The position numbers and the translations under genes were made by a program. From the NCBI GenBank assembly GCA_017434855.1, contig JAFRUA010000067.1, forward strand, positions 1,618 through 65,617: 64,000 bases of DNA, read 5' to 3'. This DNA comes from Clostridia bacterium (GTDB lineage: Bacteria; Bacillota; Clostridia; Oscillospirales; Acutalibacteraceae). Every line of letters starts with the position of its first letter. The first letter of the stretch is position 1. Below the pieces are notes generated by a model. It had not been told where the DNA came from. It saw only the letters and a list, made by a program, of their open reading frames with translations, and ran no database searches. This document shows, piece after piece, positions 3 through 23,100 of the stretch.

Positions 3-1631
3 ACTGGTGCAACGGTCTATGCGATCGGCATGGATATGTTCAACGACGCGGCAGCGAAAAGCTCCATCACGGGCTTTGCAACCGCTGATCCGTATTTTTA
101 CGGCGGCAATGTTGCCAACGCATTCTTCACCTACGGACAGGAAGCGCTTGAGGATGTGCTCGGCATCATCAAAAAGAGCATGTACAGCATCTATCCGTCC
201 GGAACGCTGACCGATCAGATCGGCCCGGATTTTGAACTGATCACCGATGCACAGCACCCGATCACGATCGGTGACGCTGTGTTTGCCGATGCCGGCGCGC
301 GTGCCGCAGGCTACAACGCGGACACTGCGACGTTCACCTGGGAAACGACGGAGCTGTCGGAACAGACCTACAGCTTTTATGTGAAGCCCAAAGAGCTGAA
401 AGCCGGCGCCTTCCTGACCAATGCGGACGCCGAAATCGACGGGGAACCGACCACCGGCGCAACGCTGCAGTATTATGCCGTTTCGGTCTTGGATAACACG
501 CCTGTGATGGCAGACACCCTGACGGAGATCCAACTGCCGTCCCCGGAGATCACCATGCGTCGTCCGTATCAGGTGCGGTATGTGTACGTCGGCGACGTTC
601 CGGCAGAAGCGGAATCGATGCTGCCGGCGCAGGAGAGCTATTTTAACGGCGACGATGTGGAAGTGGCGCCGTCGCTGCCCACGCTGAACGGCTTTGCGTT
701 TTCCGGCTGGAGCAATGAAGAAGGCGCCGCCACGCTGACCGACGACGGAAAGATGCCGGCGTCTGACGTGGTCTTTCTCGGGTCCTGGGTGCCCGCCGCC
801 ACCTATACCGTACATTATCAATATGAGGGTCCCATCATTCCCGCAGACGCGCAGGCGCTGCTGCCCGGGTCGGAATACCACTGCGCCGGTGAAAATGTGG
901 AGATCGCGCAGGATCCGTCGGTCAACGATTATGTGTTCTCCGGGTGGAAATACAAAGCGAATTCTCCACATCTGGTGAATGACACGACGATGCCGGCCGA
1001 CGACGTCACACTTGTCGGCGAATGGATTTCTGTCCAGACCTATCCGGTCCGCTATGAATTTGTGGGTGACGTTCCTGCCGGCGCGGCGGATTTGCTGCCC
1101 GCGTCAGAGCAGCATCACGGGGGCGACCATGTGACGCCCGCGGCTTACCCATCGCTGAAGGGCTATACGTTCAAGGGCTGGAAGCTGGTTGACGCCGAAG
1201 AGATCTGCACCGAGTTCACCATGCCCGAAAACGAAGTGGTCCTTGTTGGCTCGTTTGAAAGAATCGTTTATACGGGCACGCGCAGAATCGTGTTCTATGC
1301 GCCCGACAGGGTGGCGTTCCAGATCGAGGGCCTCGGTTACATCATCGACAGCGAAACACTCACGTTTGACGCAAACAAGACGGTGCGTTTCAAGCCCATC
1401 TCAGACTACGGCGATTTCACGTCTTTGGTTTATATCAATGAAGAATTCGTCACGCCGGACGAAAACGGATGGTACACTATTGATCCCGGCCCCGAGTATG
1501 TCTTTGTCTCGGTCTCACCCGGATATGTCAATGAAGAAACAGGAAAGAGCTATTCCTTGTGGGAGATGCTTTACAATTTCGTGCGGACACTTTTCAAAGC
1601 CATCAAAAAATTCTTTACGGAGAAAGCCTGA
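3..1631 (+). CDS. Secreted/surface repeat protein, 5'-truncated by the window edge. Carries SHIRT-like repeats and an aromatic amphipathic C-terminal tail.
   Basis: The frame is open from nt 3 with no stop upstream of the listed ATG at 30, so the gene probably begins outside the window. It has three ~75-aa repeats of the form Y.V.Y.(F/Y)(V/E)G..P.....LLP......G..V......(G/D)(F/Y).F.GW......MP...V.LVG.W. It ends in LWEMLYNFVRTLFKAIKKFFTEKA. Confidence 0.7.
   Translation, partial: TGATVYAIGMDMFNDAAAKSSITGFATADPYFYGGNVANAFFTYGQEALEDVLGIIKKSMYSIYPSGTLTDQIGPDFELITDAQHPITIGDAVFADAGARAAGYNADTATFTWETTELSEQTYSFYVKPKELKAGAFLTNADAEIDGEPTTGATLQYYAVSVLDNTPVMADTLTEIQLPSPEITMRRPYQVRYVYVGDVPAEAESMLPAQESYFNGDDVEVAPSLPTLNGFAFSGWSNEEGAATLTDDGKMPASDVVFLGSWVPAATYTVHYQYEGPIIPADAQALLPGSEYHCAGENVEIAQDPSVNDYVFSGWKYKANSPHLVNDTTMPADDVTLVGEWISVQTYPVRYEFVGDVPAGAADLLPASEQHHGGDHVTPAAYPSLKGYTFKGWKLVDAEEICTEFTMPENEVVLVGSFERIVYTGTRRIVFYAPDRVAFQIEGLGYIIDSETLTFDANKTVRFKPISDYGDFTSLVYINEEFVTPDENGWYTIDPGPEYVFVSVSPGYVNEETGKSYSLWEMLYNFVRTLFKAIKKFFTEKA
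566..1260 (+). repeat. Three tandem SHIRT-like / Listeria-Bacteroides-type coding repeats
   Basis: The three units begin YQVRYVYVGDVPAEAESMLPA...GFAFSGW, YTVHYQYEGPIIPADAQALLPG...YVFSGWKY and YPVRYEFVGDVPAGAADLLPA...GYTFKGWK. Family assignment is from memory of the SHIRT consensus (Y.V.Y.FV...LP......G..V.P.....G..F.GW). Confidence 0.55.
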
Positions 1632-1730
1632 TTTTCCCGGGAAAAGGCAGCCGCAAAAAGCTGCATAAGAATAAAAGATGCGCATGCAATGGATCATACA
1701 AAAAGCTCATAACTGATCTGTGCATTCGAC

Positions 1731-1784
1731 AAACCTCCTTGCATTTGGTACAATCAAACGACCAAATTCAAGGAGGTTTTCTTT
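1731..1784 (+). terminator. Strong hairpin followed by a T-rich tract. Likely intrinsic terminator of the first gene.
   Basis: AAACCTCCTTG(C)ATTTGGT (1731-1749) pairs with ACCAAAT(T)CAAGGAGGTTT (1761-1779). That is 11+7 bp with one mismatch and an 11-nt loop, followed by TTTTCTTT. Confidence 0.55.
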
Positions 1785-1980
1785 ATAAAAAAGCACATTT
1801 ACAATGAACAAAACGGGTTACACGATACACTTCACGGCGACGTCTATCTGCCGGAATGGGCGGTGTTGAAGGATGAGCATCTGCCCATCGGTAAAATTCG
1901 GCAGGATGCGCCGGATATATCGAAAGGAGCAGTTCCCGGCCCACCATAACCGGATAGTTTGGCAGGACACGCTTCGCCCA
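1785..1980 (+). pseudogene. Remnant of a TnpV-like (transposon-associated) gene. It has lost its start codon, is frameshifted and is 3'-truncated.
   Basis: Frame 3 reads (I)KKHIYNEQNGLHDTLHGDVYLPEWAVLKDEHLPIGK. After one extra A in GGTAAAATTC the +1 frame continues FGRMRRIYRKEQFPAHHNRIVWQDTL. This fits the TnpV N-terminal pattern GD.YLP......E..PIG..G..R..Y.KE..P as I recall it. ATA sits where ATG is expected, 8 nt after AAGGAGG. The 3' end runs into the kinase gene on the other strand. Confidence 0.35.
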
Positions 1981-1982
1981 GT

Positions 1983-3356
1983 TTATAATTCTGTTTCGTT
2001 CAGCAGCACCGACGCGGTGAACACGCCGTTTTCAAACAAAAACGAGCAGGCGCCTTCATAACGCGCTGCAATGCTGCGCACGGAGGCAATGCCGATGCCG
2101 TCGCCTTTGTGCTTGGTGGAGCGGAAGGTGCCGTCCTCGCGCACCTGCGGTTCGGTGCCGCAGCTGTTCTCAATGATGATCGCCAGTGCGGTGCCGCCGC
2201 CCGGCAATTTTTTTGTGCTTCCGGTGATGCGGATAAACGCGCCGGATTCCACATACGCGCAGGCTTCCATCGCGTTTTCCAAAAGGTTGCCGAGCAGCAC
2301 GGTCAGGTCTGCTTTTTCCACAAACAACAGCGCGGGAATGTCCAGCTTGGCGGTATAATCGACGCCCTTTGCCGCTGCCTGATCTGCAAAATACGAGATC
2401 ATGGCGTTGCACGTTTCGTTGTCGCAATATGCCAGCGGGTGCTCCAGCGATTCCAGACTCGGATAACCGGCAAGCAGCTCGTCCAGCGCATGGTAATCTT
2501 CGTTTTCACGGATACTTTTTAACAGGATGATGTGGTGGCGCAGGTCATGGCGCGTTTGCCGCACCTCGTCGATCCGCTGCTGCAGATTGCTGTACTGCAT
2601 TTTTTGAATGGACAGGGCGTGGTTTTCCGCCTGAAGCTGCACATTGCGCTGCTGCAGCGCAACAAGCCGGATGATGAGCCGATAGATCAGAATGGAGCCA
2701 AGATCGACCAGCAGCAGATACCCGGTACTCAGCGGGTCGAGCGCGGTTTCCAGCGTGGATTTGCCGGAGGTGTAAAAGTGCTGGGTCCATATCAGATAGA
2801 ACACAGCGGGGATCAGCCAGAGGTAGCGCCACATATAGCCGGGGGAGGAAGTGTCGGCGCTTTTGACGGGAGCTTCAGGGTCGGAAGCGATGTCTTTGAA
2901 GATCAAAAGATAAAACACCGGAAGCAGAATACACAGAACGGCGAACATCATCAGCGCATAGGTCCAGTGATAAAGAAGCTGCGCCGAATCGCCGAACAGC
3001 AGCCCCTCCAGACATTTTGCCACCATGATCACAAGGTTGCCGAGGTTCATCAGCACCAGCACCGTGAAGACCAGCTTGCCCACCGGTTCGCGGATGGCAA
3101 GGAAGATGAATGCAATGTAGAGCAGCGAAAACGCAATGTCAAACAATGGGTTCCCCGGCGTTTGAGAAAACAGCCGCCATGCGGTGCCCGTGGTGATCAG
3201 CACCGTCACCAGCGCCAGCAGGGAAAATGTCGCCGGCTTTCCAAAGCGCCAGCGTTTCCGAAAAGAGAACAGCACAAGAACCATATAGGGGAACGAATTG
3301 AGAAAAGCGTAAAGCAGCGTTTCCCAAACATAAAACGGCGCGTCTGCAGTGGGCAT
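1983..3356 (-). CDS. Membrane sensor histidine kinase, AgrC-like (GHKL/HATPase_c_5 type), partner of a LytTR regulator
   Basis: The N-terminal half is polytopic and hydrophobic. It has a phospho-His region (RQTRHDLRHHIILLKS) and an ATPase region (LLGNLLENAMEA ... IIIENSC ... KGDGIGIASVRSIAARY). The start is set at the second Met (MPTADAPF), which follows AAGGAGG by 8 nt. The ORF track starts 24 nt earlier at 3380. Confidence 0.85.
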   Translation of the reverse strand: MPTADAPFYVWETLLYAFLNSFPYMVLVLFSFRKRWRFGKPATFSLLALVTVLITTGTAWRLFSQTPGNPLFDIAFSLLYIAFIFLAIREPVGKLVFTVLVLMNLGNLVIMVAKCLEGLLFGDSAQLLYHWTYALMMFAVLCILLPVFYLLIFKDIASDPEAPVKSADTSSPGYMWRYLWLIPAVFYLIWTQHFYTSGKSTLETALDPLSTGYLLLVDLGSILIYRLIIRLVALQQRNVQLQAENHALSIQKMQYSNLQQRIDEVRQTRHDLRHHIILLKSIRENEDYHALDELLAGYPSLESLEHPLAYCDNETCNAMISYFADQAAAKGVDYTAKLDIPALLFVEKADLTVLLGNLLENAMEACAYVESGAFIRITGSTKKLPGGGTALAIIIENSCGTEPQVREDGTFRSTKHKGDGIGIASVRSIAARYEGACSFLFENGVFTASVLLNETEL

Positions 3357-3671
3357 TCGCAGCACCTCCTTCGGAATCATGGATTTATTCTAATGGAAAG
3401 GCCATATAAAATCAAGGTGTTTTGTGAAAATTGCTTCGCAAAAAAAGCACTGAAAAAAATTCGTGCATAAAAACCGACTTTTGGTGCACGATTTGACACA
3501 AACGGAAATTTTTATGATATAGTTAAAAAAAATCCAAAAAGGGGTTGACAAGTCGATGCAGGTCTGCGATACATGTATGTATGTATGTATTCTTATGCAT
3601 ATAAATAGACGCTCGCAGGCAGCATTGAGACACAGACAATCTCTGCCCTTTTTGCAAGCAATTTGAAATTC

Positions 3672-3720
3672 CAACCGTAACGCGGAGGCGAACTCTGCGC
3701 TGCGGTTGCTTTTTGTTTTT
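3672..3720 (+). terminator. Terminator-like hairpin (possible attenuator) in the leader of the response-regulator gene
   Basis: CAACCGTAACGC (3672-3683) pairs with GCGCTGCGGTTG (3697-3708) over 12 positions with one mismatch and one G-U pair. The loop is 13 nt and is followed by CTTTTTGTTTTT. Confidence 0.4.
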
Positions 3721-3762
3721 GGATAAAACCAAAGAACAGTAAACCGTAACGGAGGTGGAACG

Positions 3763-4464
3763 ATGCGCGTCGGGATTTGCGACGATAACGCGGCGGACGC
3801 GAAAAAAATCGCGTTTGCCCTGGAAGACGTCAGCGCCGATTTGGAGCTCGTCTGCTATGACACCGGCGCCGCGCTGCTGGATGCGGTCAAGGGCGGCGCT
3901 GTCTTTGATCTTGTGTTCCTCGATATTTTTCTGGCGCGGGAAAACGGCATGGAGCTTGCCGAAGCGCTGCGGCAGATCAGTCCCGACACCGACCTGGTTT
4001 TCAGCACGACCAGCCGCGATTTCGCAGTGGAGGCCTTTCGGGTGCAGGCTGCGGATTATCTGGTCAAGCCCTACGCGGAGCGCGACGTGGTGAACGCCTT
4101 TGCGCGGGTCGTTATGAAGCGGAAGAACCAAAAGCCGGACGGCGTGCTTTTGCAAGTGGGCAGGGAGCTGCGATTTTTCCGGCCGGATGAAATCGTCCGC
4201 ATCGAGAGCGACCGGCACTATACCCGCCTGCTTGCCGCAAACGGCACAGAGACGCGGCTGCATCTGAACTACTCCGAGGTTGTTTCCCGCTTCCCGAAAA
4301 CGTTTTTGGAGCTGCGCCGCGGCATCACCGTCAACATGGCATTCATCGGCGGAATCAAGGGCAATCTTGTCACGCTGACGGACGGGAGCACCTGCAACAT
4401 TCCGAAATCCAAGCTCGACCGTGTGGTCGGCAGCTACACGCGCTATGTGACCGGCGCGAGATAA
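3763..4464 (+). CDS. LytTR-family response regulator (REC + LytTR DNA-binding domain)
   Basis: The receiver domain shows ICDDN ... DLVFLDIF ... DYLVKP. The C-terminal LytTR-like region shows IVRIESDRHYTRLL...LNYSEV. GGAGG lies 8 nt upstream of the ATG. Confidence 0.9.
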   Translation: MRVGICDDNAADAKKIAFALEDVSADLELVCYDTGAALLDAVKGGAVFDLVFLDIFLARENGMELAEALRQISPDTDLVFSTTSRDFAVEAFRVQAADYLVKPYAERDVVNAFARVVMKRKNQKPDGVLLQVGRELRFFRPDEIVRIESDRHYTRLLAANGTETRLHLNYSEVVSRFPKTFLELRRGITVNMAFIGGIKGNLVTLTDGSTCNIPKSKLDRVVGSYTRYVTGAR

Positions 4465-4498
4465 ACTTGTTTATTTATTTTCTGAAGGAGGATCACAT

Positions 4499-7400
4499 AT
4501 GAAACGAAAAATCAGACGATCGATCAGCATCCTGCTGGCGCTGCTCATGTTTGCCGGTGTGCTGCCAATTTCGGTTTCCGCAGAGGCCGCCGACACAAAC
4601 GTCGGCACCACCTTTAACTTCGGGACCTATCCGCAAACGCTGGTGACAAGCCGCTGGAAGATCGACCGGCTCCGAAACTGCAGCGGCGTTCGCGACGGGC
4701 TGGAATTCTACTTTGGCACGGGATCGCTTTCAGACGGCGAAATGAAGCCCATCGTCAAGGGATATTACTATGATTTTTTTGACGACGGAAAAAAGTACCG
4801 CGCCGTCTGGATGTCTGAATTTGCCCCGGCGTATACCGGCTTCCCCCGCGATCCGGAAAAGACGGAGGTGGTCTCCGGGTTTCAAACGAACGAGCTCTAC
4901 TTTTTTGAATATACGCCTTTGACCTGGCGCGTTGTGCAGTCGGATAGCAACGGGTCGCTTTGCATGTGTGAAAACGTGATTGACACGTCGGCGTTCCAAA
5001 ACGTCGTTTATCGGCGGCAGGACGGTGTCTCATATATCGATAAGAACTCCAACCTTCTGGCAAACAGCTATGTCGATTCCAACATATTAGGGAATCTTAT
5101 GACTCGGTTTTGGTTGACAGCATTCACAGAAGGCCAAAGAAACGCCCTGCGCCCTGCTCCGGAGGGATTTGGTTTTGTATCGCCGGACAGGATCTTCCTG
5201 CCGACCGCCGCAGTGGTCAAAAACTGCTATGACAGCGACGGCGCAAGAAGAGCGTACAGCACCGAATATGCAAGGTATTTCGGTGCCGAATCCGTCAGCG
5301 CGTATTGGCTCAGCACACCGGGTGAGGAATCGTCCCTTGCCCGCTATGTGAGCAAGCTGGGCGGCGCAGAGAATTCCGCCCATGTGACCAAAGCCACCTA
5401 CGGTGTGCGCCCGATGATTTATCTGTCCGATCCGTCAGACGATACGGCTATTTCAGCGTCGCTGTTTTCTTCCGTTGGGCACGAGAGCAGGCACTGCTAT
5501 TACAACGACGCCTCCTATTGGACTTGGGCGAGTGATTACACAAGCGCACGTGCGGAATTCCGTTGTGTCAACGGAGATGATTCCTTTTACGTGACCGACA
5601 CCGCGCCGCGGTGTGTCACAGTCTCACACCAGAGCTGCTCCACCGACGAAGTGATCAAATATCGGGCGACGGTGGAATTCCAAGGCGTGAAACATTCCGA
5701 CGATTCCGTACCGATCATCTTGCGGCCGGCCACCGGCGCGCACATCTTTACCGGGGACCCGACATGGGAATGGGCGAAGAACAAGAGCGGGGCGACCGCG
5801 ACGTTCATATGCTCCGTTTGCAATCAACCGTTCACCTTCACCGACTGCAATCCGCAGCAGCGGATCATCGACGAATTCCTGTTTTACGAGGCAACGGTTT
5901 CCGTGAACGGACAAACATACACGTCTTATTCGAGCTCTGTCGGCGATATTCTGTTTGGTACCTATCCGCAGACCCGCGTGACTGATTCCACCACTCTGGC
6001 CGCGCTGGACGCCTTTGTCGGTTCAAGCACCTTCGCTTCCAGAGGATTTGCATGGAAGGATTATGAGTATTACCGCAACAACCAGAAGGTTGAAAAAATG
6101 ATGGAGTTTGCGGACTTTTTCTATGGCGGCCAGAAATACAGGGCCGTCAGGATCAACAGCAACCGGGATCCGTTTTCTGACACAGAGCCTGCGCCGAGCG
6201 CGTCCACGCAGCTTCGTTTCGGCTACAATGCCGGCGAAACCTATTATTTCCTTTATGAACCGATCCCCTGGCACATTGTTGAAGCGAGCGACGGCTCTAA
6301 TTATATCGTGTCTGCGATCATGCTGGACGCGCAGCCGTTTACCAATACCCGCTACGTCGAAACCAATGAGTCATATTCCGACAGCGGCTGCGGCACCTAT
6401 GCCAGCAACTTTGCGCATTCCAGCCTTCGTTCCTGGCTCAACGATTCCTTCTATAACACCGCGTTCAGCGAAGCCCAGAAAGAGAACATCCGCGACGACG
6501 TTGCGGTGGACAACGACAGCGCATTTGAGGGAATGTACAACGCTGAATCGACGACAGACCAGATCTATTTGATGTCTGCACAAGAGGTGCAGGCGCACAG
6601 CGGAACCATTTCCTTCGTCGCGCCGATGACGGATTATGTCAAATGCCAGGGAATCAGCAACAACCGTATCAGTTTTGGCGGTGACCCCGAAACATGCGCG
6701 CTCTGGAGATTGCGTACACCGTATGATTCAAAGACCATGATGTCGGTCGATATGAACGGCGCGCTTTATACGGAGTTTCCGTATTATATGGGCGTTACGG
6801 ACAACGGCGGCATCTGCCCCGCTTGCCGGCTGGAAAATCTGGCGATTGACACCGAAGTCTCCGATGTGCTGTATTCTTCCGGTACCACCTGTCAGCACAA
6901 TTACATCGAAAACTGGACATGGGCGACGGATCACAGCAGCGCTGCGTTCACGCTGACCTGCACGGCTTGCGGCTATACGAAAACGAAGACGGACGACCAT
7001 CCGCAAACTGTGACCGTGTCGCAGCCGACCTGCAGAGACAATGGTGTTATCAAATACACCGCGACGGTCACCCTGAACGGAAAAACCTATACGACGCAAA
7101 GTGACCCGGTCGAGATTCCCGATTCCGCAAGCGGACTGCACACGGTCAGCGGTGCGCCGCGCTGGACGTGGGCAGCGGATTACAGCAGCGCCGAGGCGGT
7201 GTTCACCTGCGTTGTCTGCAACACGATCTTTACACGGACAGACATTTCGCCGCGCATCAACCTGATCCAACCCGCCACCGCCACACAGAACAAGGTGGTC
7301 ACCTATTCGGCGGAGGTCAGCTATTTGGACGTCACATATACGACAGAAAGCGAAGAGGTCACGGTCGATTGCTCCGCGCTCGGCCACAGCTTCGTGAACT

Positions 7401-8740: not shown

Positions 8741-8906
8741 GGCAACACCGCACAAATGCGGCCGCACGCCTTGCTTGATCTTTGTTCCGTCATATTGCAC
8801 AGCTTTTCCTTGCCAACCGACAGGTTGCCTGCGTCAAATCTATGCAATCTGACAAAAAAATCTGCTACGCAATCCGCATGCCCGAATTGTGCGGTGTTGC
8901 CTTAAA
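8736..8906. repeat. Perfect 20-bp inverted repeat (arms 8736-8755 and 8887-8906) enclosing a 131-bp spacer
   Basis: The left arm is TTTAAGGCAACACCGCACAA and includes the TAA stop of the 1413-aa gene. The right arm, TTGTGCGGTGTTGCCTTAAA, is its exact reverse complement and ends 55 nt before the ATG of the 3479-aa gene. Confidence 0.95.
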
Positions 8907-8961
8907 CGCAGATAAACTTTGAGCATTCATCATCCGGCTTTGCTGAGGGAGGTACATATAT

Positions 8962-11900: not shown

Positions 11901-14900
11901 TGACTTTGACCAGCATGAATCCGCCGCGTCCGTGGAGCTTTATCAGGTGCTGATTACCAGGGGCAACGACAGCGTGTGCTGCCTGACCGACGTCAGTGCA
12001 TTGACGTCGACCGGTGACGGAAGCTTCACCGGAAGTTATATGCTGGATGCGAATGCGCTGCATGTGGCGCTTGACCCCAGCGATCCCTACAGTTACCGCG
12101 ACGTGTATACCATCACCGTTCAGGTCAAGAACGGCACAGACAGCACCTGGAGCTATGATTCCTGCATTCTGTATGTCTACAGTGCCGACACGCTGAAGCT
12201 GTGGATCAACGGCGCAGCACCTGAGGTCGATCCGGAAACCGGCGCGCTGCTCATGTCGAACCGTTCCGCGATCGCGGAAATGTATCGCACACAGGGTCAG
12301 GACGCCATCATTGCCCTGAAACGCGACATCAAGCTGCGCGAGGTCGTCTCTGCCAACTATGGCGACTATGCCTGGAGCGAGCTGGCGGACCAGATCGCGT
12401 GGGCCTCCAGCGACAACAGTGTTGCAACCATCAATTATCAGCAGGGCTCGATGTATGACGACATCCGCAACTATGCTTACACGACCTATACGCCCGCCAC
12501 GGAGTTTGCACTCTCGGGCCTTTCAGACGGAGAGACCACCATTACGGCAACGCATGCGCGGACCGGTATGCGCGCGGATCAGGACGTGAAGGTGGAAACG
12601 CTGACGGATCAGCTCTATCTGTTCCAGTGCTATCCGCAGGTCAAAACCACGCTGTCTTATACGAATGGCGACGGTCAGGAAAAAACACTTGACACCGACA
12701 ACAACGGCGCCGCCGCGATCTATGAAGAAAGCGGCATTGCCGGCGACGTCTATTGCCGCAGCGTCGGTGAAGACGGCTATACCTATCTTGGAACCTTCAT
12801 GAAGGATTCCATCGAATCCGGCGAGCGGGATTCCACCAAGCTGAACCTGTATCCCTGCAACAACCTGAACCTGCGCCGTGCCGCGTATGCCTATCTATAT
12901 ATCAAGAATCCGGACGGCACGCCGTACACAGGCAAAATCGTGTTGCGCGGCGGCGTATTTGTCAATGATGTTTACAGGAAGACTGCGCAGTTTTCGCTGA
13001 ACAGCTCCGGGCTGGTTGACAAAAGCGGTGAAATCGACCAGATCGTCGATCTGGGACATAACGAGGATGGCAGCGTAAAAACAGACGGAAAGCTCGAAAT
13101 CATCATGGACCAGACGCAGTGGGGGCTGGAAGGCAACCAGATTAAGGTGGGCGACGACGTCACGTATCTGTTCCTGATCAAGCAAGAGGGCAGCACGGCC
13201 TATTATCCCATCTTTGCGGCGATCGATTTGATGGCGGATACCGATGCTTTTGTCGCCAGCGGAGAGGCGGCGGCGGTCTTCCGCAAAAATGAAAGCGCGG
13301 GCGCGCATCCCTTTGTCATTCAGCAGTTCTCCACCATCATGAACACGGAAAAGAATTACAGCAGCACCACTAGCGTTCTGGATCAAACGGGCAAGGTCGG
13401 CCCGAATGACGACATGCCGCGTGCCGACCTGACGACCATCGTTTTGTGGTGGGGTGAAGAAACCGACAAGGACAACCCGCAGAACAAGCTGCGGCTGCGC
13501 GTGAAAGACGATAATAAAATTGAGATCGCCAAGGATTATTCCACACAGGAAAATGAAACCTATGATTTCCTGGACGAGGTTGTGACGAGCTATACCGTTC
13601 AGTTGACCAATAAATCGCTGAAGGGCATTTTGGCTTCGCTTTGCAGCTGCAGCGTCTGTCTGGATTATTATAACGACGGCAAAACGCTGATCCGAACCCA
13701 GGAATTGCCCATGCAGCTTTGCAATCTGACAACAGCCGGCGAGGCCGAACGAAGCCAGGAGCTGCTGGATGAGCTGGGCCGCATGAGCGGCTCGACCGGC
13801 GCAAATCTCGACACGGATATGGATTTCGGCGATGATTTTGTGCGGATCATGTTTGACACCATTTCGATCGACTCCAAAACCAACGCGGTGATCAACGCCT
13901 TTGATCTGTTGATTTCTCCCACATCCGACCCGACCAAGTTCCTCGGCTTTATACGCATCCCATTCAACGATACTGCCAGCTCCGGCGTCTATCTGGACAG
14001 CGTCAAGCAAGCGGAATACAAAGACACGCCGATTCTGGAAGACTGCGCAAAGCTGGTGACCTTTGGCAAAAAGCTCGCCTGGCAGGGCATCAAAAATAAA
14101 GTCAGCGGCAAAGATTATTCCAAGCCTGCCGCCCCGGCCTCGACCGGTTCCAAGGTCAAAAAAGACTGGGACTGGAATGTCAGCGGCTACATGGAAACGC
14201 TCATTTACTTTGATTTCAATGCGCACAAGTGGAAAATGAAGGTGCTGGACGGTGGTTTTGGCGCGTCAATCGAAATCAGCGCCAGCAAGACCTTGAATTA
14301 TCAGGTGGGTCCGGTTCCCTGTTTCGTCACACTTTCCGCAGGCGGAAAGGCTGCGTTCAATTTTGACGCGCTCACAACAGCGTATCGCAAGAGTCATGTT
14401 GCGGGTGCAGAGGTCGAAACAGCAATGGAATATCTGACATCTTTGCGCCTGTCACTCTATCTCAGCCTGTTTGCGGGCGTTGGCATCGATTATTCCGTTG
14501 TGTCCTTTAAGCTCGGCATTTTCGGCAAGATCACGTTTACAGCGCTGTTTGACTGGCTGAACCGGCCGTATCTGTCAAAGAATAATGACGCTTATATGAT
14601 GGCCACCGGCAAACTCAATGATGAAAAGGCAAATCTTTCGGGGCAAAACTTCAAAATCGACGGCCAGATCGGACTGAAATTTGTCGTGAGCGTGATCGGC
14701 GTCAAGTATGAAAAGGTCCTGTATTCGCTGAATTTCAATTTGCTTGATAAATCCACAGGAAAGCAGAGCACGATCACCGAGCTTTGGAAAGCCAATCAAA
14801 GATACCTGAGTACCGTGATCGACAAGCTGGTCGGCAACGGTTCCGCCTCGCTCACATCCGTAAACGGCGAACAGGTGCTGTCGCTCAACCTTGCGCCGAC

Positions 14901-17900
14901 ACTGGAGTCGCGCGATTATCTGGAATACAGCGGCAGAGTGTGGGGTACAAGGAGGAACGGCATGCTGCGCAGGTCTGCCGCAACCGACGGCGTCAGCAAT
15001 CTGGAAAGCAACACCTATCCTTATGCCGACCCGGAAATAACGACCGACGGGCAGCTCATGGTGTATCTTTCCGATATGGAGAATACGGATGTGACCAAAA
15101 CCCGAGCGTGCTTTGCTCACATGGCGGATGGCAGCTACGTTCCCGACGGTGTGATTGATGACTGCGGTTGTGGTGATGAACATCTGACCGTTGACGGAAC
15201 CGGGGATTATGCCGTTGCCGCGTGGACCAGGAAAACGGCAAAAATCAATGCAGAGGCCGGTTCGGTTCTGACGGGCAATGAACAGATGATGCTGCTGAAC
15301 AACACGGATGTTTATGCCGCTGTGTATGACAAGACGCGCGGGCAGTGGCAGACAACTGCCCTGACAGCAGAAAACGGCGCGGAGCTTGCTCCAACGGTCG
15401 CAGTCAATGGGAAAAAGGCGATCGTTGCATGGCGAAATGTTTCATCCAGTGATCCGAACAGCCTGACGGAATTCGACTATAGAGATGTTGTTCAATACCG
15501 GATCTGGAACGGCGAAACATGGAGTGACACCGAGACCTTCTATAACGGAACCTCCGGCGCAATCAAGAGTGTTTCCGCCGCGATGATGGCGGACGGCACT
15601 GCTGCCGTGGCGTATACGCTGGACCTTGACGGAGAGGACGAGACGATTGACGACCGCGAGATCGTTTACGGCATTGTCGGTACCGACGGCAAAGAACTTC
15701 GCAATGTTCGCGCAACAAACAATGGCATTCTCGACGAGAATCCCCAGATCGCTGTTGTCAGCATGTCTGACGGCGCCGTTGACGAACGGTTCATTCTTGC
15801 ATGGTACACATCCGACAACGAAGATGCCGTTTCCGATTCTGCCCAGAACGACGATGCTTTTACGTTCGGCCAGCCGGATATTCGCTTCCTTGACATTGAC
15901 CGAGAGGGCATTGTCAGCACCTGTTTCCCGCACTCTGTCAGCCAGATGGCGTCTGAGTCCGGCGTGGGGATCAGCTCCGGTTTCCGGTTCGCGCGCGGCG
16001 CACATACGATCAATGACCTTTCCCTTGTCTGGCCGGAACGCATCGGCGAGTCGTCATCCGTGATCGGCACATGGAAGGGCAAGAACGTCATCTACACCTT
16101 TGCTGCGGACAATACCGGTCTTAAAAAAGACGCGGCGTCTGACGAGGAAACGCCGTTCACCTATGAAGTTGACAAGGACAAAGAAACAATGTCGCTTCAT
16201 TTCGTCTCCGGCGGCGAAAGCAGCACGATCAGTTATGCAATGTCGGACAACAACACGTTGGTTCTGACTTTTGCGGACGGCAAAACCGTGACCCTGACCC
16301 GCACCTCGCGTTCTGAAAAGGACGTGCTCAAGGCGGTCAGATTCTACTCGTTCGGGCAGACGGATGACACTGTTGGTGTGACGCATGAAATCACGGTTGC
16401 GGATATGCCGGATGCGACGCTGATCGATCATTTTGATGCCTGTTCGGTCGGTGATAGCGTTCGTGCGGTGCTTTTGGGGACCGTTTACGGCGAGAACGGC
16501 GAAACAGTAACAAATACCAGCCAGACGGTCAGCGGCGATACGGTTCAATATACCGTTCCGAAAGAGGTTTCGTATATGTATACCGCCCAGGAAACCTATA
16601 CCGACACGATCTCTGTTCCGATGGCGTATACAGATCTCAGCACGTTGAAGCGCGGGGCGGCCTCGCAGGTCCTGTTCAAGGTGGAAAACGACGGCATCCA
16701 TCCGATCACGTCGCTGCATTTGACGGTCGGCACACCGGGGGATGCGCAAGAGGCGACGATTGAAAATCTTCAAATCCTGCCCGGCGAGACTTATTCCGCA
16801 TGGTTCGATTATGTTGTTCCCGCTTCCGCAGTGGCGGATCCTGAATACACGGTGACAGCCACCTTTGATCAGGGAAATCATGAACAGACGCAGGCCGATG
16901 CTCAGGGTACGATCTATCTCAACTTCCCGAATCTTTCCATTGCGGGCCTGAGCATTGTCAGAGAAGAGGAAGGCGAACGCGACCTGCAGATTAAGCTGAG
17001 CAACAGTTATGATGCAAAGCTTGAGGGCAGCGGCCGCATTGTAAAGATCAGCTTCTGGTCTGACGCCACCTGTGAAACAAAAATCAGCGACCTGCAGGAT
17101 ATCGTAATCGATGACGATGAATCCCTTAAAATGATTGACGAGGGCGGTTATTGCCGTCAGGTCACCTTTGACGTGGAATCCTATATTAGAGGCGACAGCG
17201 AAACCGTGATGGAGCTGCCGGTGGGCGGCGTGCCGGTCTATGTTTTGGCTGAGGTGCTTGAACCGAGCGAGAATCACGACGGTACATACGTTGTTTTGGG
17301 CGACCCCGTCGCTTCTGACAACTGTGATTCCGTTGTCTGTGAAAACATCCACAGCCGCACGGGCCAGGACGTGATTCTTTCCAGCCTGTGTGACGTTGGT
17401 GCGCAGGGAACGACTGTCGCGACCGTGTTTATGCAAAATACCCGCATGAGTCCCGTGACCGGTCAGATGACGGTCCGCCTGCTGGACGAGGACGGAAACA
17501 CTCTTGAACAGAAGATTTATACCGGTGAAGACGGTGACGATCTGCTCACGCTGGCGGGGGAAGCAAAGCGTGTTGAAACCTTTGAATTCAACCATCGCGG
17601 CGCTTTTGTTGACGTGATCTATCAGGATATCACCGACGATGCGGATAATACAGAGCTGCTGGAGCTGTTTTCAAATGAGCTTGGCGTTTCGCTGGATGAC
17701 TTTGCGCTTCAGGAGGACGGGACCTATTCCGCTTCTGTCACAGTGGATGATGTGACGTCTGCAGTTTTGAAGGCGGTCACGCTGAGCAGCCGTTCCAACG
17801 CAAGCATCGATGTGAACGGTACTGCGGTGGCGGGCGGCAGCAGCGTGCTGAGCGGCAATTGTGTGCTCAACCCTGCCAGAAGCAATACGATCACCGTGAC

Positions 17901-19401
17901 CGTAACGGCCGAAAACGGCGACACGCGCAGTTATGTTCTGAATGTGATGAGCCGGAAGTCGATCGTGGTGAAAGCGAACGCTGCTGAAAAGATCTATGGA
18001 GAAGCGGACCCGGCGTTCACCTATACTGCGCAGGGGTTGGTCGACGGGGATACGATTTCCGTGACGTTTTCACGCGAACCGGGCGAAAATGTCGGTGCGT
18101 ATGATATTCTTGCCGAAATCATCCCGGGTGATAACTACATCGCGTCCTATGTCGGCGCAAAGCTCACTGTTCGGCCCAAAGAGATTTCCGTTGTTGCAAC
18201 GGCAAAAGCCAAGACTTACGGCAGCGCGGATCCGTCGCTGACCTATTCCGTGACGGGCCTTGTCGGCAAAGACAAGTTGACCGGTGCTCTGACCCGCCAA
18301 GCGGGTGAAACGGTTGGCAGATATGAAATTGAACAGGGGACGCTTGCCGCAAGCGACAACTACATTCTGAACTACACCGGTGATTATTTGACGATCGGCC
18401 CAAAAACGCTCACCGTTCGAGTGGATGCGCAAAGTAAGACGTTCGGTGATCCGGATCCCGAGCTGACATATACGGTTTCCGGCCTGATCGGTGATGATAC
18501 GCTTTCCGGCGCGCTGCAACGCGAAGCGGGTGAAAACGTCGGCAAATATGCGATCATGCTCGGCACGCTTTCCAATGAGAATTATGATATCGATTTCAGA
18601 GGCGCTGATTTGGTGATTGGCAAAAAAACGGTCACTGTGACGGCGGACGCGAAAGAAAAAATCTATGCTCAGGCTGAGCCGGAGCTGACATATACGATCA
18701 CCGGCCTGCTTGGCGATGATCAGCTTTCCGGCGCGTTGATCCGCGAAAGAGGGGAAAACGTCGGTACCTATGAGATCAGGCAGGGGGCGCTTTCGGACAA
18801 GAGCGGCAACTACGAGCTGACCTTTATCGGTGCAGACTTTACCATCACGCCGCTGGAGGTCATTGTGACAGCGGATACGCAGTCGAAGTTCTGTGCAGAG
18901 GTTGATCCTGCGCTGACCTATCGCGTGGAATATCCCGTGGAAGGAACTTCTTTGCCTGCCGGCACCGAGATCCCGGGCGCATTGGTCCGAACACCGGGCG
19001 AAGATGTTGGCGCTTATACGATTTCTCAAGGCACGCTTGGCAGCGAAAATTATGCGATGACCTTTGTCCCTGCCGAGCTTGTGATCAGCCACAGAATTCA
19101 AAAGGTGGATGCCGTGGAGGCAGGCTGCATAACCGACGGCAACAAAGCGTGTTTCCGCTGCCAAGGCTGCGGCAGACTGTTTGCCGACAGTGAAGCGGCA
19201 GAAGAGATTTCTGCAGACAGCGTCGTGATTCCCGCCCACGGCCATAAGGTTGAACACGGGATCTGTATCTATTGCGGCAAATACCGCTGCAGCTTCTGTG
19301 AAACCTATGAGGCAAAGAAGGATATCCCGGTGGTCGGCTGGATCTACGGTCTGGTGCATTACTTCGTTCACCTTGCCTCACATATCGGTTATCTGACCTG
19401 A
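8962..19401 (+). CDS. Giant secreted surface protein (3479 aa) with a signal peptide, Ig-like/Big_2-like segments, a beta-propeller-like region, a cadherin-like domain, 5 MBG repeats, a Cys/His knuckle and an aromatic C-terminal tail
   Basis: Signal peptide is MKKATKQIVAVLMTLIMLFTACPVSAFA. SD is GAGGGAGG. The C-terminal third has a cadherin-like segment (SIDVNGTAVAGGSS...TITVTVTAENGDTRSYVLNV) followed by MBG repeats. It ends HGICIYCGKYRCSFCETYEAKKDIPVVGWIYGLVHYFVHLASHIGYLT. Confidence 0.85.
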   Translation: MKKATKQIVAVLMTLIMLFTACPVSAFASLLENDPAVNRQILQALTEIADNEDTAREYYNILQQYGLLDEDGNAVENWSVTMRGEDVTLEEIRALLAGDYDPQELVWVDGTPITLENLNTILQIEDYVSYVKETYFTAHEWTEAQKESARSLANQINNGGITLTSTGAPVIGSSGNSQTARVSVEEIERNDETRVVTFVATLLNAAENQEASFEWIAVSGSRPVIGGTQSATVRLTSSQPSATFCVKYDAIPYDGDNRIMACGDYATTFFVCCRNIRNALFMNEKSTQVFCVYNPGSVLNDQILTKEALTNTTIFCSGNTEFSFENNPAFMAGIRWGILTHVDTNYSYIGGSGDIWLYGWNESAGDIAKRDADGNIIAWGDWGRYDRNFRESLSGYWDTHEDGDVWACKTVRYELTDYPTKKGLMEKTVIGSGSFTCYPSLSSASYSGIASCYYTLNDTKIPSLAADNTYSVPAGSYSVGEVIPITVRFSEPVQPNATLEVNGQTIKAAELSPSNVMTFPYTVPELTAGTLTIGRVTFEDIVGNQPETDTYLSGHDGQTVTPSGVTLTGPIKSHAFTGMEAAIDTTDPQNSKMTVSVHVLGLDDVRGHESEYVDDASHTTTATIVDNMTNWLTASENVDVVNGTWVWKNVKIQVDGQTAPVTFTPRPGQAETVVGQTLTATFDLPKNTDNEPSDCVAELLVDDALVIGMYALVQLEPVKYITDADMQKLTLTVTPPSGRDFVYNEDSAALFSQDYDVIRAEYQFKNTGPFTYDAPEDLVWESSDPSVADISQVHNGKIGRIGYVEPTGKAGTVKFILKATNGNVPGKEVCFETVPLRFAVSDSPYLKMHNETVLTRDQQELKLYWDSNLITKNGGADTVFTVTVTRDGASAPEFTKTVTGNADNYVSSVLIDAGSLRYLYEDGTSNEFTARVTATLAGKEYKASVKIVLEPQPAKVTLAPLDDYFILDSAAPVQLSWEITDFDQHESAASVELYQVLITRGNDSVCCLTDVSALTSTGDGSFTGSYMLDANALHVALDPSDPYSYRDVYTITVQVKNGTDSTWSYDSCILYVYSADTLKLWINGAAPEVDPETGALLMSNRSAIAEMYRTQGQDAIIALKRDIKLREVVSANYGDYAWSELADQIAWASSDNSVATINYQQGSMYDDIRNYAYTTYTPATEFALSGLSDGETTITATHARTGMRADQDVKVETLTDQLYLFQCYPQVKTTLSYTNGDGQEKTLDTDNNGAAAIYEESGIAGDVYCRSVGEDGYTYLGTFMKDSIESGERDSTKLNLYPCNNLNLRRAAYAYLYIKNPDGTPYTGKIVLRGGVFVNDVYRKTAQFSLNSSGLVDKSGEIDQIVDLGHNEDGSVKTDGKLEIIMDQTQWGLEGNQIKVGDDVTYLFLIKQEGSTAYYPIFAAIDLMADTDAFVASGEAAAVFRKNESAGAHPFVIQQFSTIMNTEKNYSSTTSVLDQTGKVGPNDDMPRADLTTIVLWWGEETDKDNPQNKLRLRVKDDNKIEIAKDYSTQENETYDFLDEVVTSYTVQLTNKSLKGILASLCSCSVCLDYYNDGKTLIRTQELPMQLCNLTTAGEAERSQELLDELGRMSGSTGANLDTDMDFGDDFVRIMFDTISIDSKTNAVINAFDLLISPTSDPTKFLGFIRIPFNDTASSGVYLDSVKQAEYKDTPILEDCAKLVTFGKKLAWQGIKNKVSGKDYSKPAAPASTGSKVKKDWDWNVSGYMETLIYFDFNAHKWKMKVLDGGFGASIEISASKTLNYQVGPVPCFVTLSAGGKAAFNFDALTTAYRKSHVAGAEVETAMEYLTSLRLSLYLSLFAGVGIDYSVVSFKLGIFGKITFTALFDWLNRPYLSKNNDAYMMATGKLNDEKANLSGQNFKIDGQIGLKFVVSVIGVKYEKVLYSLNFNLLDKSTGKQSTITELWKANQRYLSTVIDKLVGNGSASLTSVNGEQVLSLNLAPTLESRDYLEYSGRVWGTRRNGMLRRSAATDGVSNLESNTYPYADPEITTDGQLMVYLSDMENTDVTKTRACFAHMADGSYVPDGVIDDCGCGDEHLTVDGTGDYAVAAWTRKTAKINAEAGSVLTGNEQMMLLNNTDVYAAVYDKTRGQWQTTALTAENGAELAPTVAVNGKKAIVAWRNVSSSDPNSLTEFDYRDVVQYRIWNGETWSDTETFYNGTSGAIKSVSAAMMADGTAAVAYTLDLDGEDETIDDREIVYGIVGTDGKELRNVRATNNGILDENPQIAVVSMSDGAVDERFILAWYTSDNEDAVSDSAQNDDAFTFGQPDIRFLDIDREGIVSTCFPHSVSQMASESGVGISSGFRFARGAHTINDLSLVWPERIGESSSVIGTWKGKNVIYTFAADNTGLKKDAASDEETPFTYEVDKDKETMSLHFVSGGESSTISYAMSDNNTLVLTFADGKTVTLTRTSRSEKDVLKAVRFYSFGQTDDTVGVTHEITVADMPDATLIDHFDACSVGDSVRAVLLGTVYGENGETVTNTSQTVSGDTVQYTVPKEVSYMYTAQETYTDTISVPMAYTDLSTLKRGAASQVLFKVENDGIHPITSLHLTVGTPGDAQEATIENLQILPGETYSAWFDYVVPASAVADPEYTVTATFDQGNHEQTQADAQGTIYLNFPNLSIAGLSIVREEEGERDLQIKLSNSYDAKLEGSGRIVKISFWSDATCETKISDLQDIVIDDDESLKMIDEGGYCRQVTFDVESYIRGDSETVMELPVGGVPVYVLAEVLEPSENHDGTYVVLGDPVASDNCDSVVCENIHSRTGQDVILSSLCDVGAQGTTVATVFMQNTRMSPVTGQMTVRLLDEDGNTLEQKIYTGEDGDDLLTLAGEAKRVETFEFNHRGAFVDVIYQDITDDADNTELLELFSNELGVSLDDFALQEDGTYSASVTVDDVTSAVLKAVTLSSRSNASIDVNGTAVAGGSSVLSGNCVLNPARSNTITVTVTAENGDTRSYVLNVMSRKSIVVKANAAEKIYGEADPAFTYTAQGLVDGDTISVTFSREPGENVGAYDILAEIIPGDNYIASYVGAKLTVRPKEISVVATAKAKTYGSADPSLTYSVTGLVGKDKLTGALTRQAGETVGRYEIEQGTLAASDNYILNYTGDYLTIGPKTLTVRVDAQSKTFGDPDPELTYTVSGLIGDDTLSGALQREAGENVGKYAIMLGTLSNENYDIDFRGADLVIGKKTVTVTADAKEKIYAQAEPELTYTITGLLGDDQLSGALIRERGENVGTYEIRQGALSDKSGNYELTFIGADFTITPLEVIVTADTQSKFCAEVDPALTYRVEYPVEGTSLPAGTEIPGALVRTPGEDVGAYTISQGTLGSENYAMTFVPAELVISHRIQKVDAVEAGCITDGNKACFRCQGCGRLFADSEAAEEISADSVVIPAHGHKVEHGICIYCGKYRCSFCETYEAKKDIPVVGWIYGLVHYFVHLASHIGYLT
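17956..19086 (+). repeat. Five tandem MBG-type (YGxxDP) ~75-aa coding repeats
   Basis: The units carry K(I/T)YG(E/S)ADP(A/S)(F/L)TY...GLV(G/D).D......(R/Q)(E/Q)(P/A)GE.VG.Y.I......NY......G..L(T/V)I.P(K). Confidence 0.8.
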
Positions 19402-19435
19402 GACTGCACTTTAAAGAAAAGGAGGAACAAAAAAC

Positions 19436-20356
19436 ATGAGTTCTTTAAAAACGGTATCCAAAAGAGGGATCGCCGTTCTGCTGGTTCTTGCGTTTCTCTT
19501 TTCTGCAAGCATCACGTCCTTTGCGACAAACGGCTTTCGTTATGTGCACGATCCCCGTGACAACGCCAAAGCAATGGCGGATATCGTTGAGGACGAAGCC
19601 GCGATCTACGGCTTTCGTCCCAGCGAAACGGGCAGCCTGAAAATGTATGCCGATGCGGATTGGTCGGACCCTGCGGTTGTGGCGCAGGGTCGCGCCGATC
19701 GCATTGCGTATCACGAAAGCATCCGCTCGATGTATGTGATGCTGCAGGATATGCAGGCGCAGGGCAAAAGCACAGAGGAAATTGCCCGCGCGGTCAGCAA
19801 CCGCAGAAACGAGATCCGGCTTGAAGCATATGCAAACGATCCGGAAGGCCTTGCAGAGCTGAAGGAACGCAATCTTGAAAAATATGGGCATGAGGAAGGC
19901 CCGCTGCCGGAGGAGCTTTATGAGAAATACGGCTCCTGGGAGCGTGTGATGGAAAAATCTTTCAGCACAAATTCCGGCATGGACGCCTGCCTCGGGCTGT
20001 ATGACGATTATTATTTCCTCTATGTCGCGCTGGGCGACGTCCCGGCAGACGTCACGATCACACTGCCGCAAACTGTGACGTGCAGTTACAAACGAACGGT
20101 CCCTGTTTTACCGACGATCGAAACCAATGCAGTCAATTATACCGTGACATATGAAGTTGACGATCCGAAGATTGCATCGGTTGATGAAAGCGGCATGGTC
20201 ACCGGCCTGCGGCTTGGCAAAACGGCTGTGCGCTGCGTTGTCACAGACGCAAGCGGCACCCGGCATGTTTCCGCTCCCTGCAGGGTTCTGGTGCAAAGCC
20301 GACTTTGTCAATGGTTCAATCAGTTCATCATGTTCCTGAAGCACCTGTTTAAATGA
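19436..20356 (+). CDS. Secreted protein (306 aa) with a helical N-domain of unknown function, a Big_2-type Ig-like domain and an aromatic C-terminal tail
   Basis: Signal peptide is MSSLKTVSKRGIAVLLVLAFLFSASITSFA. The Big_2-like segment is VTYEVDDPKIASVDESGMVTGLRLGKTAVRCVVTDASG. It ends SRLCQWFNQFIMFLKHLFK. AAGGAGG lies upstream, and the gene starts 34 nt after the giant gene. Confidence 0.8.
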   Translation: MSSLKTVSKRGIAVLLVLAFLFSASITSFATNGFRYVHDPRDNAKAMADIVEDEAAIYGFRPSETGSLKMYADADWSDPAVVAQGRADRIAYHESIRSMYVMLQDMQAQGKSTEEIARAVSNRRNEIRLEAYANDPEGLAELKERNLEKYGHEEGPLPEELYEKYGSWERVMEKSFSTNSGMDACLGLYDDYYFLYVALGDVPADVTITLPQTVTCSYKRTVPVLPTIETNAVNYTVTYEVDDPKIASVDESGMVTGLRLGKTAVRCVVTDASGTRHVSAPCRVLVQSRLCQWFNQFIMFLKHLFK

Positions 20357-21120: not shown

Positions 21121-21163
21121 AACATACATGAATCATCTTTCTTGCCGTGAAAGGAGATCTTTC

Positions 21164-22492: not shown

Positions 22493-22505
22493 AAGGAGAT
22501 TGGAA

Positions 22506-23100
22506 ATGAACGATGCGCTTATCATGACTTGGTGGGAAGAACACTTTTCTGGGCTGGAAATTGATTCCTGCCTTGCCGTTGATTTTCCGGACAACGAAAA
22601 CGGCGGCCCGTTTGCATCCTTGCGAGAGGATGACCTCGACGTCTGTGAGGATACGATTGCCGCAGCCTTTGCCTATACGCTTGCAAAGTTCACCGCGCAG
22701 AACGAGAGCCTGTTCTGGATACAGGAGGACGGGCTCTGTTCTCCGTTTTATATTTCTTTTGACGAGGATGCGCCGACGCAGGACTTTTTGCGCAAGGTCT
22801 CGGCGCTGCGTCAAAGCGCAGCAGAGCATCCTCTGACCGACGCCGATGCGCTTGCGCAGGCGCTTGATCTTCACCGGGATCTGTTCCTTTCCTTTGACAA
22901 AAGCTTTCTTCCGGCAGAATCGGGTGAAGCGCGGCTGTGTCTGCAGGTTTTGCCGGGCGAACTGCGCTTTTTCTATCGGGAAAACCTGTTTCATGCGGAG
23001 AATATGCGCCGCTTCTTAAAGGCGACGGCGCAGGTTGCACGGCAGCTGACAGAATACAAAAAGCTCAAAGACCTTTGCCTGGTCAGCGAAGATGACCTGA
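22506..23100 (+). other. NRPS N-terminal ~200-aa region resembling only the C-terminal half of a condensation domain (no HHxxxDG)
   Basis: No His motif is present before the first A domain. Boundaries are approximate. Confidence 0.4.

Follow-up and report, generated by a model that had tools for sequence, protein, structure and literature searches.

The stretch of DNA considered here, 64,000 nucleotides long and referred to below as the window, has a G+C content of ~55% and derives from an uncultured Clostridia metagenome-assembled genome (MAG) from a ruminant gut metagenome. It contains four neighbouring genes, all on the plus strand, whose products end in a short aromatic segment, hereafter the tail. 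Protein 1 (3–1631, 542 codons plus stop) is present only as its 3′ part, the 5′ end being cut by the window edge. Protein 2 (4499–8740, 1413 residues), which corresponds to the cluster representative P0153, combines a signal peptide, a DUF6273 domain, Cys-rich repeats and the tail termed canonical below. Protein 3 (8962–19401, 3479 residues) carries a signal peptide, a cadherin-like domain, five MBG_2 domains, a Cys-rich module and a tail, and protein 4 (19436–20356, 306 residues) a signal peptide, a helical domain of ~200 residues without a Pfam model, a Big_2 domain and a tail. The four C-terminal sequences quoted in an earlier note on this DNA are indeed encoded there, with stops at 1631, 8740, 19401 and 20356.

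Signal peptides were called by eye or by regular expression. On inspection, the N-termini of proteins 2, 3 and 4 are K/R-rich, then hydrophobic, and of AxA type, as in signal peptides; the predicted sequences are MKRKIRRSISILLALLMFAGVLPISVSA, followed by EA (4499–4582, plus strand), MKKATKQIVAVLMTLIMLFTACPVSAFA, followed by S (8962–9045, plus strand), and MSSLKTVSKRGIAVLLVLAFLFSASITSFA, followed by T (19436–19525, plus strand), the last of which is modelled by AlphaFold2 as a helix at residues 4–31. Protein 1 is 99% identical to residues 407–948 of P0196 (948 residues), which starts with the signal peptide MKRFKRPLAFLLSAILCIGLLQLGAGA; what the earlier note had said of signal peptides on proteins 2–4 and of the truncation of protein 1 is thus borne out, and the signal peptide missing from the truncated protein is seen in its full-length relative. 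Its description of the four proteins as otherwise unrelated in domain content is largely correct by Pfam, since the extracellular-type domains differ from protein to protein: InlB B-repeat/Flg_new in protein 1, a surface protein that also has a VWA-like domain, DUF6273 in protein 2, five MBG_2 and a cadherin-like domain in protein 3, and Big_2 in protein 4. The description fails in one respect, because proteins 2 and 3 have a Cys-rich module in common that Pfam does not annotate. As also claimed there, no recognised surface anchor is found: neither the four proteins nor their tails give a Pfam match to SLH, CWB2, GW/SH3, choline-binding, LysM, WxL or dockerin models, and the four proteins contain no LPXTG motif and no match to PF00746 (Gram_pos_anchor) or another anchor model. 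No Pfam or NCBIfam model, CTERM models included, covers any of the four tails, even in scans restricted to the tails with a threshold of E ≤ 10.

The tail of protein 2 (LCPWDHVNHGSSFFGKLVRFFHGILYFFTHLQAQF, 8633–8737, plus strand) belongs to a sharply conserved family. It consists of a Cys/Asp/His cap followed by an amphipathic helix with two conserved His residues, and it scores 68.9 bits (E 1e-23 at Z = 1; E 1.9e-18 against 822 open reading frames (ORFs) of the window) with a profile built from 27 canonical tails, none of which comes from the window. In short form the family motif reads C-x2-[C/D]-x3-H...FWG[RK]IVxFFHSILYFFAHLFG[RK][RK]-COOH, the whole module comprising ~35 residues; IVGFFHSILYFFAHLFGR is an example of its C-terminal tryptic peptide. 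When 147 tails are anchored on the invariant His, the consensus is [L]-C-[KP]-[WY]-[C/D]-x-x-[D]-H-[GS]-x-[S]-F-W-[GQ]-[RK]-[IL]-[VI]-x-F-F-H-S-I-L-Y-F-F-A-H-L-F-G-[RKL]-[RKM]-COOH. Residues of the kind that could serve as metal ligands occupy positions C(−20), C/D(−17), H(−13), H(0) and H(+8), and the protein ends ~13 residues past H(0), a distance that is exactly 13 in 121 of the 147 tails. Protein 2 has C, D, H, H and H at these five positions and also stops 13 residues past H(0), so that its Cys/His cluster, C-P-W-D-x3-H-G, is part of the conserved family motif. Within the helix, conservation reaches 100% for H, 97% for L and 86–95% for F; the motif Cys and the cap His are kept in about four-fifths or more of the tails, with C or D at the fourth position, and many tails have a second CxxCG knuckle 9–14 residues upstream, as in a zinc ribbon.

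The family is large and strictly C-terminal. A search profile of 41 positions, made from 11 tails, retrieves 155 matches at E ≤ 1e-3 and 35 at E ≤ 1e-10 from 1.84 billion cluster representatives (clusters at 50% identity). In 149 of the 150 best matches the matching segment lies no more than about 12 residues from the end of the protein, although the hosts range from 33 to 2162 residues in length. A crude rule assigns a signal peptide to 64 of the 91 full-length hosts, and the remainder seem to be gene calls that are truncated or extend too far. The domains found in the 61 members scanned are BspA-type leucine-rich repeats (LRR; 15 members), InlB B-repeat, DUF6273, beta-helix, C-type lectin, VWA, cleaved-adhesin, Glug, peptidase M6 and ubiquitin-like domains. 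The linker upstream of the tail is rich in P, T, D and E, which make up 47% of its residues vs 28% in the body of the protein. Canonical tails are not covered by any Pfam or NCBIfam model, and no PDB chain is matched significantly in a profile search (best hit 2ly0_A, influenza A M2, E 1.4); in the literature the string FFAHLFG was found in no paper and keyword searches returned nothing relevant. The 2ly0_A entry is a segment of M2 that includes an interfacial amphipathic helix, and its resemblance to the tail profile is compositional only. As a separate observation, three of the 61 full-length canonical-tail proteins (set P0122–P0271, outside the window) carry Pfam ubiquitin or Rad60-SLD domains, with a best E of 4e-31; these hosts would be exported, tail-bearing ubiquitin-like proteins of rumen Clostridia.

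The distribution of the canonical tail was followed with the degenerate DNA pattern F-H-x-[IV]-x-Y-F-F-x-x-L-F-G, scanned over 185,579 species genomes, the resulting counts being lower bounds. At least 119 matching stretches were obtained, and the matches listed include at least about 72 true tails, defined by the Cys/His motif upstream and a stop 0–5 codons past LFG; 53 of 68 genomic copies stop 2 codons past LFG. All true tails among the matches listed lie in uncultured Clostridia, Ruminococcaceae, Oscillospiraceae or Lachnospiraceae MAGs, with 4–6 copies per MAG, and the tail-bearing MAGs come mostly from the gut of goat, cattle, buffalo, deer and reindeer. The 47 pattern matches in other phyla are tiny chance ORFs. 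Viral contigs give three chance matches and no true tail, which argues that the module is not phage-borne. On the minus strand of one further contig (L100, JAFRRP010000004.1, RGIG2737), the canonical tail end FHSIVYFFAHLFGQR is preceded by unrelated sequence within an ORF of 40 codons, which probably represents a tail gene that has undergone a frameshift or decay.

The tails of proteins 1, 3 and 4 differ from this family to varying degrees. With the family profile they score 4.8, −0.4 and 3.9 bits, respectively, at or below the 5.4 bits of the unrelated Escherichia coli PBP5 anchor. Homology of these three tails to the canonical family is therefore rejected on profile scores, and the proposal that all four tails constitute a single shared signal does not hold, protein 2 being the only family member. 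The same comparison divides the proposed Cys/His cluster in front of three of the tails: the cluster of protein 2 is a family motif, that of protein 3 belongs to an upstream Cys-rich module, and the Cys of RLCQW in protein 4, considered as a conserved feature, is discarded because it varies among orthologues. Proteins 1 and 4 have none of the family's ligand-like residues and end in plain amphipathic helices without a cap.

The tail of protein 3 (VVGWIYGLVHYFVHLASHIGYLT, 19330–19398, plus strand) is a His- and aromatic-rich, weakly amphipathic helix that closes a C-terminal module of 107 residues (19078–19398, plus strand), in which a Cys-rich unit and a CxxC-x4-CxxC element precede the tail. 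These 107 residues are collinear with canonical-tail C-termini in tblastn alignments (E 1e-8 for locus L029, 7e-7 for L090) that extend into the tail, where RCSFCETYEAKKDIPVVGWIYGLVHYFVHL faces LCPYCHTHHSGFIGSIVGFFHRIMYFFAHL; the upstream Cys-rich unit contributes most of the score. Relative to the family ligand positions, CxxC and H(+8) are kept, Y stands at position 0, and four extra residues are present. Taken alone, the tail is not significant with either tail profile. Its alignment nevertheless suggests that it is probably a diverged copy of the canonical tail. The Cys-rich unit itself is a wider feature of these proteins: protein 2 has ~8 tandem 126-nt units of 42 residues (GHSFTNYVYNGDATCTADGTETAVCDRCG, 7374–8365, plus strand) without a Pfam model, and the same 42-residue unit immediately precedes the tail in protein 3 as well as in many proteins with a canonical tail.

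The tail of protein 1 (SLWEMLYNFVRTLFKAIKKFFTEKA, 1554–1628, plus strand) is a Lys-rich amphipathic helix. Comparable K/R-rich tails occur on signal-peptide proteins of related MAGs, at the loci L052 (NFFSRLWNHIRDFFARIAAFFRNLFRR), L073 (NFFQKIINFFKDLFAKIKAFFQNIGK) and L082, and several of them end in FFx[HN]LF, as canonical tails do; this shared ending suggests, at the level of sequence, a continuum between K/R-rich and canonical tails. Neither the C-terminus of protein 1 nor that of protein 3 has relatives in the concatenated-query search or in scans of metagenome contigs. The four tails are accordingly one sharply conserved family member (protein 2), one collinear and probably diverged relative (protein 3) and two simpler amphipathic helices (proteins 1 and 4).

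Protein 4 provides the clearest indication of what such a tail does. Its tail (RLCQWFNQFIMFLKHLFK, 20300–20353, plus strand) is modelled by AlphaFold2 as a helix at residues 289–305 with a predicted local distance difference test score (pLDDT) of about 86. The protein has more than 1600 relatives, in which the N-terminal domain of ~200 residues is common and the C-terminal endings vary. Among the best 120 of these relatives, about 55 end in Big_2 and a short amphipathic tail such as SNLLLWLTRLVAFFKNLF, seven in a Pro/Asp-rich linker followed by CPWDDTDHGASLWGRLIRLFHSILFFFARLFGGR, which is the module of the protein 2 tail, 20 in a membrane span with a basic end, at least 14 of these 20 with an LPXTG-like P-x-T-G-D motif (basic end RRRK), and four in SLH domains; the others have other amphipathic ends or nothing. 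An equivalent of the protein 4 tail, with the consensus LLLWxxRxxxFxxxL, is kept in about 55 orthologues. That the tails interchange with three established types of anchor supports the view that they occupy the slot of a cell-surface anchor, and it is the strongest evidence for a role in keeping the protein on the cell.

Two further observations concern this family. The helical N-terminal domain (19436–20050, plus strand; P0001–P0120) matches no Pfam model and contains many invariant residues, including Y, H, W and an GMDACLGLYDDYY motif; it defines a large family (more than 1600 matches) with swappable C-terminal anchors. In many orthologues of protein 4, and in some canonical tails, the C-terminus is a Cys or lies beside one (...NLSQC, ...NLFSC, ...NTVC, ...GSRC), examples being P0008, P0009, P0019, P0022, P0024, P0047 and P0074–P0077.

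The physical properties of the tails are compatible with interfacial helices. For proteins 1, 2 and 4 and the canonical consensus, the hydrophobic moment (μH, 18 residues) is 0.48–0.74, the upper value being that of protein 1, the best 19-residue Kyte–Doolittle mean 0.3–1.0 and the summed Hessa energy +7.5 to +14 kcal/mol; protein 3 gives 0.36, 1.31 and +6.4 kcal/mol. Real membrane anchors of homologues show 0.18–0.32, 2.1–3.1 and −3.7 to +0.4 kcal/mol, so that a membrane-spanning stop-transfer anchor is rejected: the hydrophobicity of the tails is too low, in agreement with the absence of a classical stop-transfer segment claimed at the outset. The suggested likeness to PBP5-type amphipathic C-termini is supported by near-identical values for the E. 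coli PBP5 anchor (verified as residues 378–403 of 6ntz_A), with a μH of 0.50 vs 0.48–0.74, a Kyte–Doolittle mean of 0.33 vs 0.3–1.3 and a Hessa energy of +13.8 kcal/mol. The amphipathic character itself holds in part: proteins 1, 2 and 4 and the consensus have a moment at or above the Eisenberg surface-seeking boundary, protein 3 lies below it, and on helical wheels the apolar (F, I, L, W) and polar (G, R/K, S, Y, H) faces separate in all four tails. Where structure models were consulted, as the earlier note had recommended together with the wheels, a terminal helix is modelled both in protein 4 and in P0068, in which a disordered linker at 206–229 precedes a helix at 244–263 (pLDDT about 70).

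The occurrence of the tails is also selective. Among ~38 ORFs of the window, an aromatic amphipathic C-terminus is found only in these four proteins and, weakly, in the ORF at 3523–4263 (minus strand); the lipoproteins and N-terminally membrane-anchored proteins of the window have no such tails. A census covered 353 genes, drawn from the window and related loci. By a criterion of our own, 6 of 89 signal-peptide proteins have a non-canonical amphipathic tail vs 1 of 212 proteins without a signal peptide; because these loci were chosen for canonical tails, only the non-canonical counts are unbiased. Among these genes, non-canonical amphipathic tails thus show the enrichment on signal-peptide proteins that had been put forward as a check.

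The best-supported reading of these properties is that of C-terminal cell-retention modules acting as a non-covalent, interfacial membrane tether, and we give it about an even chance; for the canonical tail, the most likely interpretation is a novel means of keeping surface proteins attached to a Gram-positive cell. In such a mechanism, the Sec pathway would export the protein and the signal peptide would be removed, after which the last 18–25 residues would fold into an aromatic amphipathic helix lying in the outer-leaflet interface of the cytoplasmic membrane, as in PBP5, while the rest of the protein would reach outward through the wall. Canonical tails are set off from their host protein by a linker rich in Pro, Thr, Asp and Glu. 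In protein 2, the C-x2-[C/D]-x3-H knuckle, probably forming a metal (Zn) site with the invariant His of the helix, would cap the helix FWG[RK]IVxFFHSILYFFAHLFG, and the chain closes with a mostly basic pair of residues whose spacing from the C-terminus is fixed. Protein 3 would use a diverged copy of this arrangement, and proteins 1 and 4 simpler helices without a cap.

The closest precedent is E. coli PBP5. C-terminal amphipathic anchors are known from the PBP5/6 class. The PBP5 helix holds an exported enzyme on the outer face of the inner membrane, and deletion of the last 18 residues frees PBP5 (PMC2909392). In PBP5/DacA (last 18–20 residues), as by prediction in the proteins described here, Sec export and a cleaved signal peptide are combined with an aromatic, His-containing, amphipathic and non-spanning helix at the extreme C-terminus, and even local strings are alike (FFGKII...FHHWFG-COOH vs FFGKLV...FTHLQAQF-COOH and FWGRIV...AHLFGRR-COOH). 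At 5.4 bits, however, there is no detectable homology. In contrast to the PBP5 helix, which belongs to one enzyme family, the tail is a mobile module on unrelated adhesin-type proteins of Gram-positive cells with a thick wall, and the canonical version is longer, with a Cys/His cap, a fixed basic end and a low-complexity linker before it.

Several points weigh against a purely interfacial tether. Membrane binding is read from the composition of the tails; the moment of protein 3 (0.36) is below its boundary (0.42); no orthologue was found that would demonstrate conservation of the protein 1 and protein 3 tails; and one interfacial helix offers a protein of 3479 residues only weak tethering. 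The canonical helix is conserved far beyond what lipid binding needs, and this conservation, together with that of the Cys/His cap, suggests that the tail is recognised by a protein or a metal. The fixed two-residue basic end and the motif–helix–basic layout, in turn, resemble those of processed sorting signals. There is a real chance, if less than even, that the conserved tail C-x2-[C/D]-x3-H...FFHSILYFFAHLFG[RK][RK]-COOH goes beyond a passive lipid-binding helix and is the recognition element of a new surface-display system, either a sorting signal or a Zn-dependent docking tag. Both of these options stay alive because of the near-invariant helix, the zinc-knuckle-like Cys/His spacing and the fixed basic end.

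As a docking tag, the canonical tail would be a metal-stabilised docking or oligomerisation element, with Zn bound by the Cys/Asp/His knuckle and the helix His, and with an aromatic face that would bind a surface receptor or bundle with other tails, possibly joining the products of neighbouring genes. Such a role appears unlikely in both its parts, yet it accounts for several features: the invariance of the helix His and the mostly conserved motif Cys and cap His, the second CxxCG knuckle upstream of many tails, a weak, below-threshold zinc-ribbon match, the very high conservation across unrelated hosts and the adjacency of the four tail genes in the window. Reduced extracellular Cys would presumably be permitted by strict anaerobiosis. 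The dockerins of rumen and cellulolytic Clostridia offer a parallel from the same ecological group, in that a small C-terminal tag after a linker brings diverse secreted proteins to the cell surface, and the tail may share their metal dependence. Unlike dockerins, which comprise about 70 residues with Ca-binding EF-hand-like repeats, the tail has about 35 residues of a different sequence; no dockerin Pfam model matches the tails, and neither a cohesin-like partner nor any other receptor candidate was found. Moreover, the gene cluster is not conserved, protein 4 orthologues lying in unrelated contexts, the tails of proteins 1 and 4 have the same position but no metal ligands, and the AlphaFold2 model has moderate confidence only (pLDDT about 70).

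As a sorting signal, the canonical tail would be processed: an enzyme would read the Cys/His motif, cleave the tail and join the protein to the wall or to a lipid, the helix and basic end having paused the protein in the membrane before cleavage. Sortase acts in this manner on LPXTG and exosortase on PEP-CTERM. We consider both the processing and the pausing improbable here. The three-part layout, with a conserved motif, a helix of about 21 residues and a mostly basic pair at a fixed distance, does speak for them, as do the many paralogous substrates per genome in a restricted lineage, the wall-spanning type of linker before the tail and the fact that the canonical tail stands in for LPXTG-type signals in homologues. 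LPXTG signals are likewise C-terminal after a linker, occur on adhesin-type proteins several per genome, have a basic end and interchange with the tails in protein 4 homologues, but the tails lack an LPXTG-like motif, a membrane span and a Gram_pos_anchor match. The CTERM signals (PEP-CTERM/exosortase, GlyGly-CTERM/rhombosortase and PGF-CTERM/archaeosortase) are similar in placing a motif, a helix and basic residues at the extreme C-terminus and in being lineage-restricted with many substrates per genome; the tail differs in its amphipathic, non-spanning helix, and no NCBIfam sorting-signal model matches it. The helix is too polar to span a membrane (Kyte–Doolittle about 1.0; Hessa about +7.6 kcal/mol), it is the helix and not the motif alone that is highly conserved, and the tails of proteins 1 and 4 have no motif at all. 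A cognate enzyme is also missing from the neighbouring DNA: no candidate enzyme or partner gene recurs in the 8–20 kb pieces around about 70 tail genes, where the only recurrent neighbours are tail proteins, a major facilitator superfamily (MFS) transporter and two families without a Pfam match, and none lies beside the protein 4 orthologues, whose neighbourhoods (again 8–20 kb pieces) are unrelated. Since only pieces of this size were covered, this is a weak negative.

Finally, that the resemblance of the four tails is a compositional coincidence with no common function is hardly credible and is largely refuted for proteins 2 and 4: the noise-level profile scores of proteins 1, 3 and 4 and the weak amphipathicity of the protein 3 tail would fit it, but protein 2 matches the family at 69 bits, about 55 orthologues keep the protein 4 tail, protein 3 is collinear with canonical-tail proteins, amphipathic tails are rare without a signal peptide (1/212), and each of the four tails closes an exported protein in which no other anchor is present.

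Other genes of the window adjoin this group. Between proteins 1 and 2, at 1983–4263 (minus strand), lie a GHKL/AgrC-type sensor kinase of 465 residues and an adjoining 246-residue ORF without a Pfam match; the two may act as a regulatory pair. The surface-protein genes are followed directly, at 21128–29114 (plus strand), by a MatE transporter and then a 2204-residue protein resembling nonribosomal peptide synthetases, with two AMP-binding domains, two carrier domains, one condensation domain and a terminal NAD-dependent reductase, which makes this a small non-ribosomal peptide locus.

With respect to retention on the cell, the means recognised in catalogues of Gram-positive surface proteins are sortase signals, lipoproteins, membrane spans and wall-binding domains. 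In a 2018 review of surface display in monoderm bacteria, the word 'amphipathic' is absent (PMC5817068). A modular, multi-copy, conserved tail on adhesin-type proteins of Gram-positive bacteria is apparently undescribed, likely because its hosts are known only as MAGs; Pfam-A, NCBIfam 20.0 and the PDB do not contain it, nor does the literature that could be searched. Carried by BspA-type LRR, InlB-repeat, lectin, VWA and protease hosts, such a module would add a class to the catalogue. It would also mark surface proteins in rumen metagenomes that are now annotated as hypothetical or by a single domain, and it would give a short surface-display tag for anaerobic Firmicutes.

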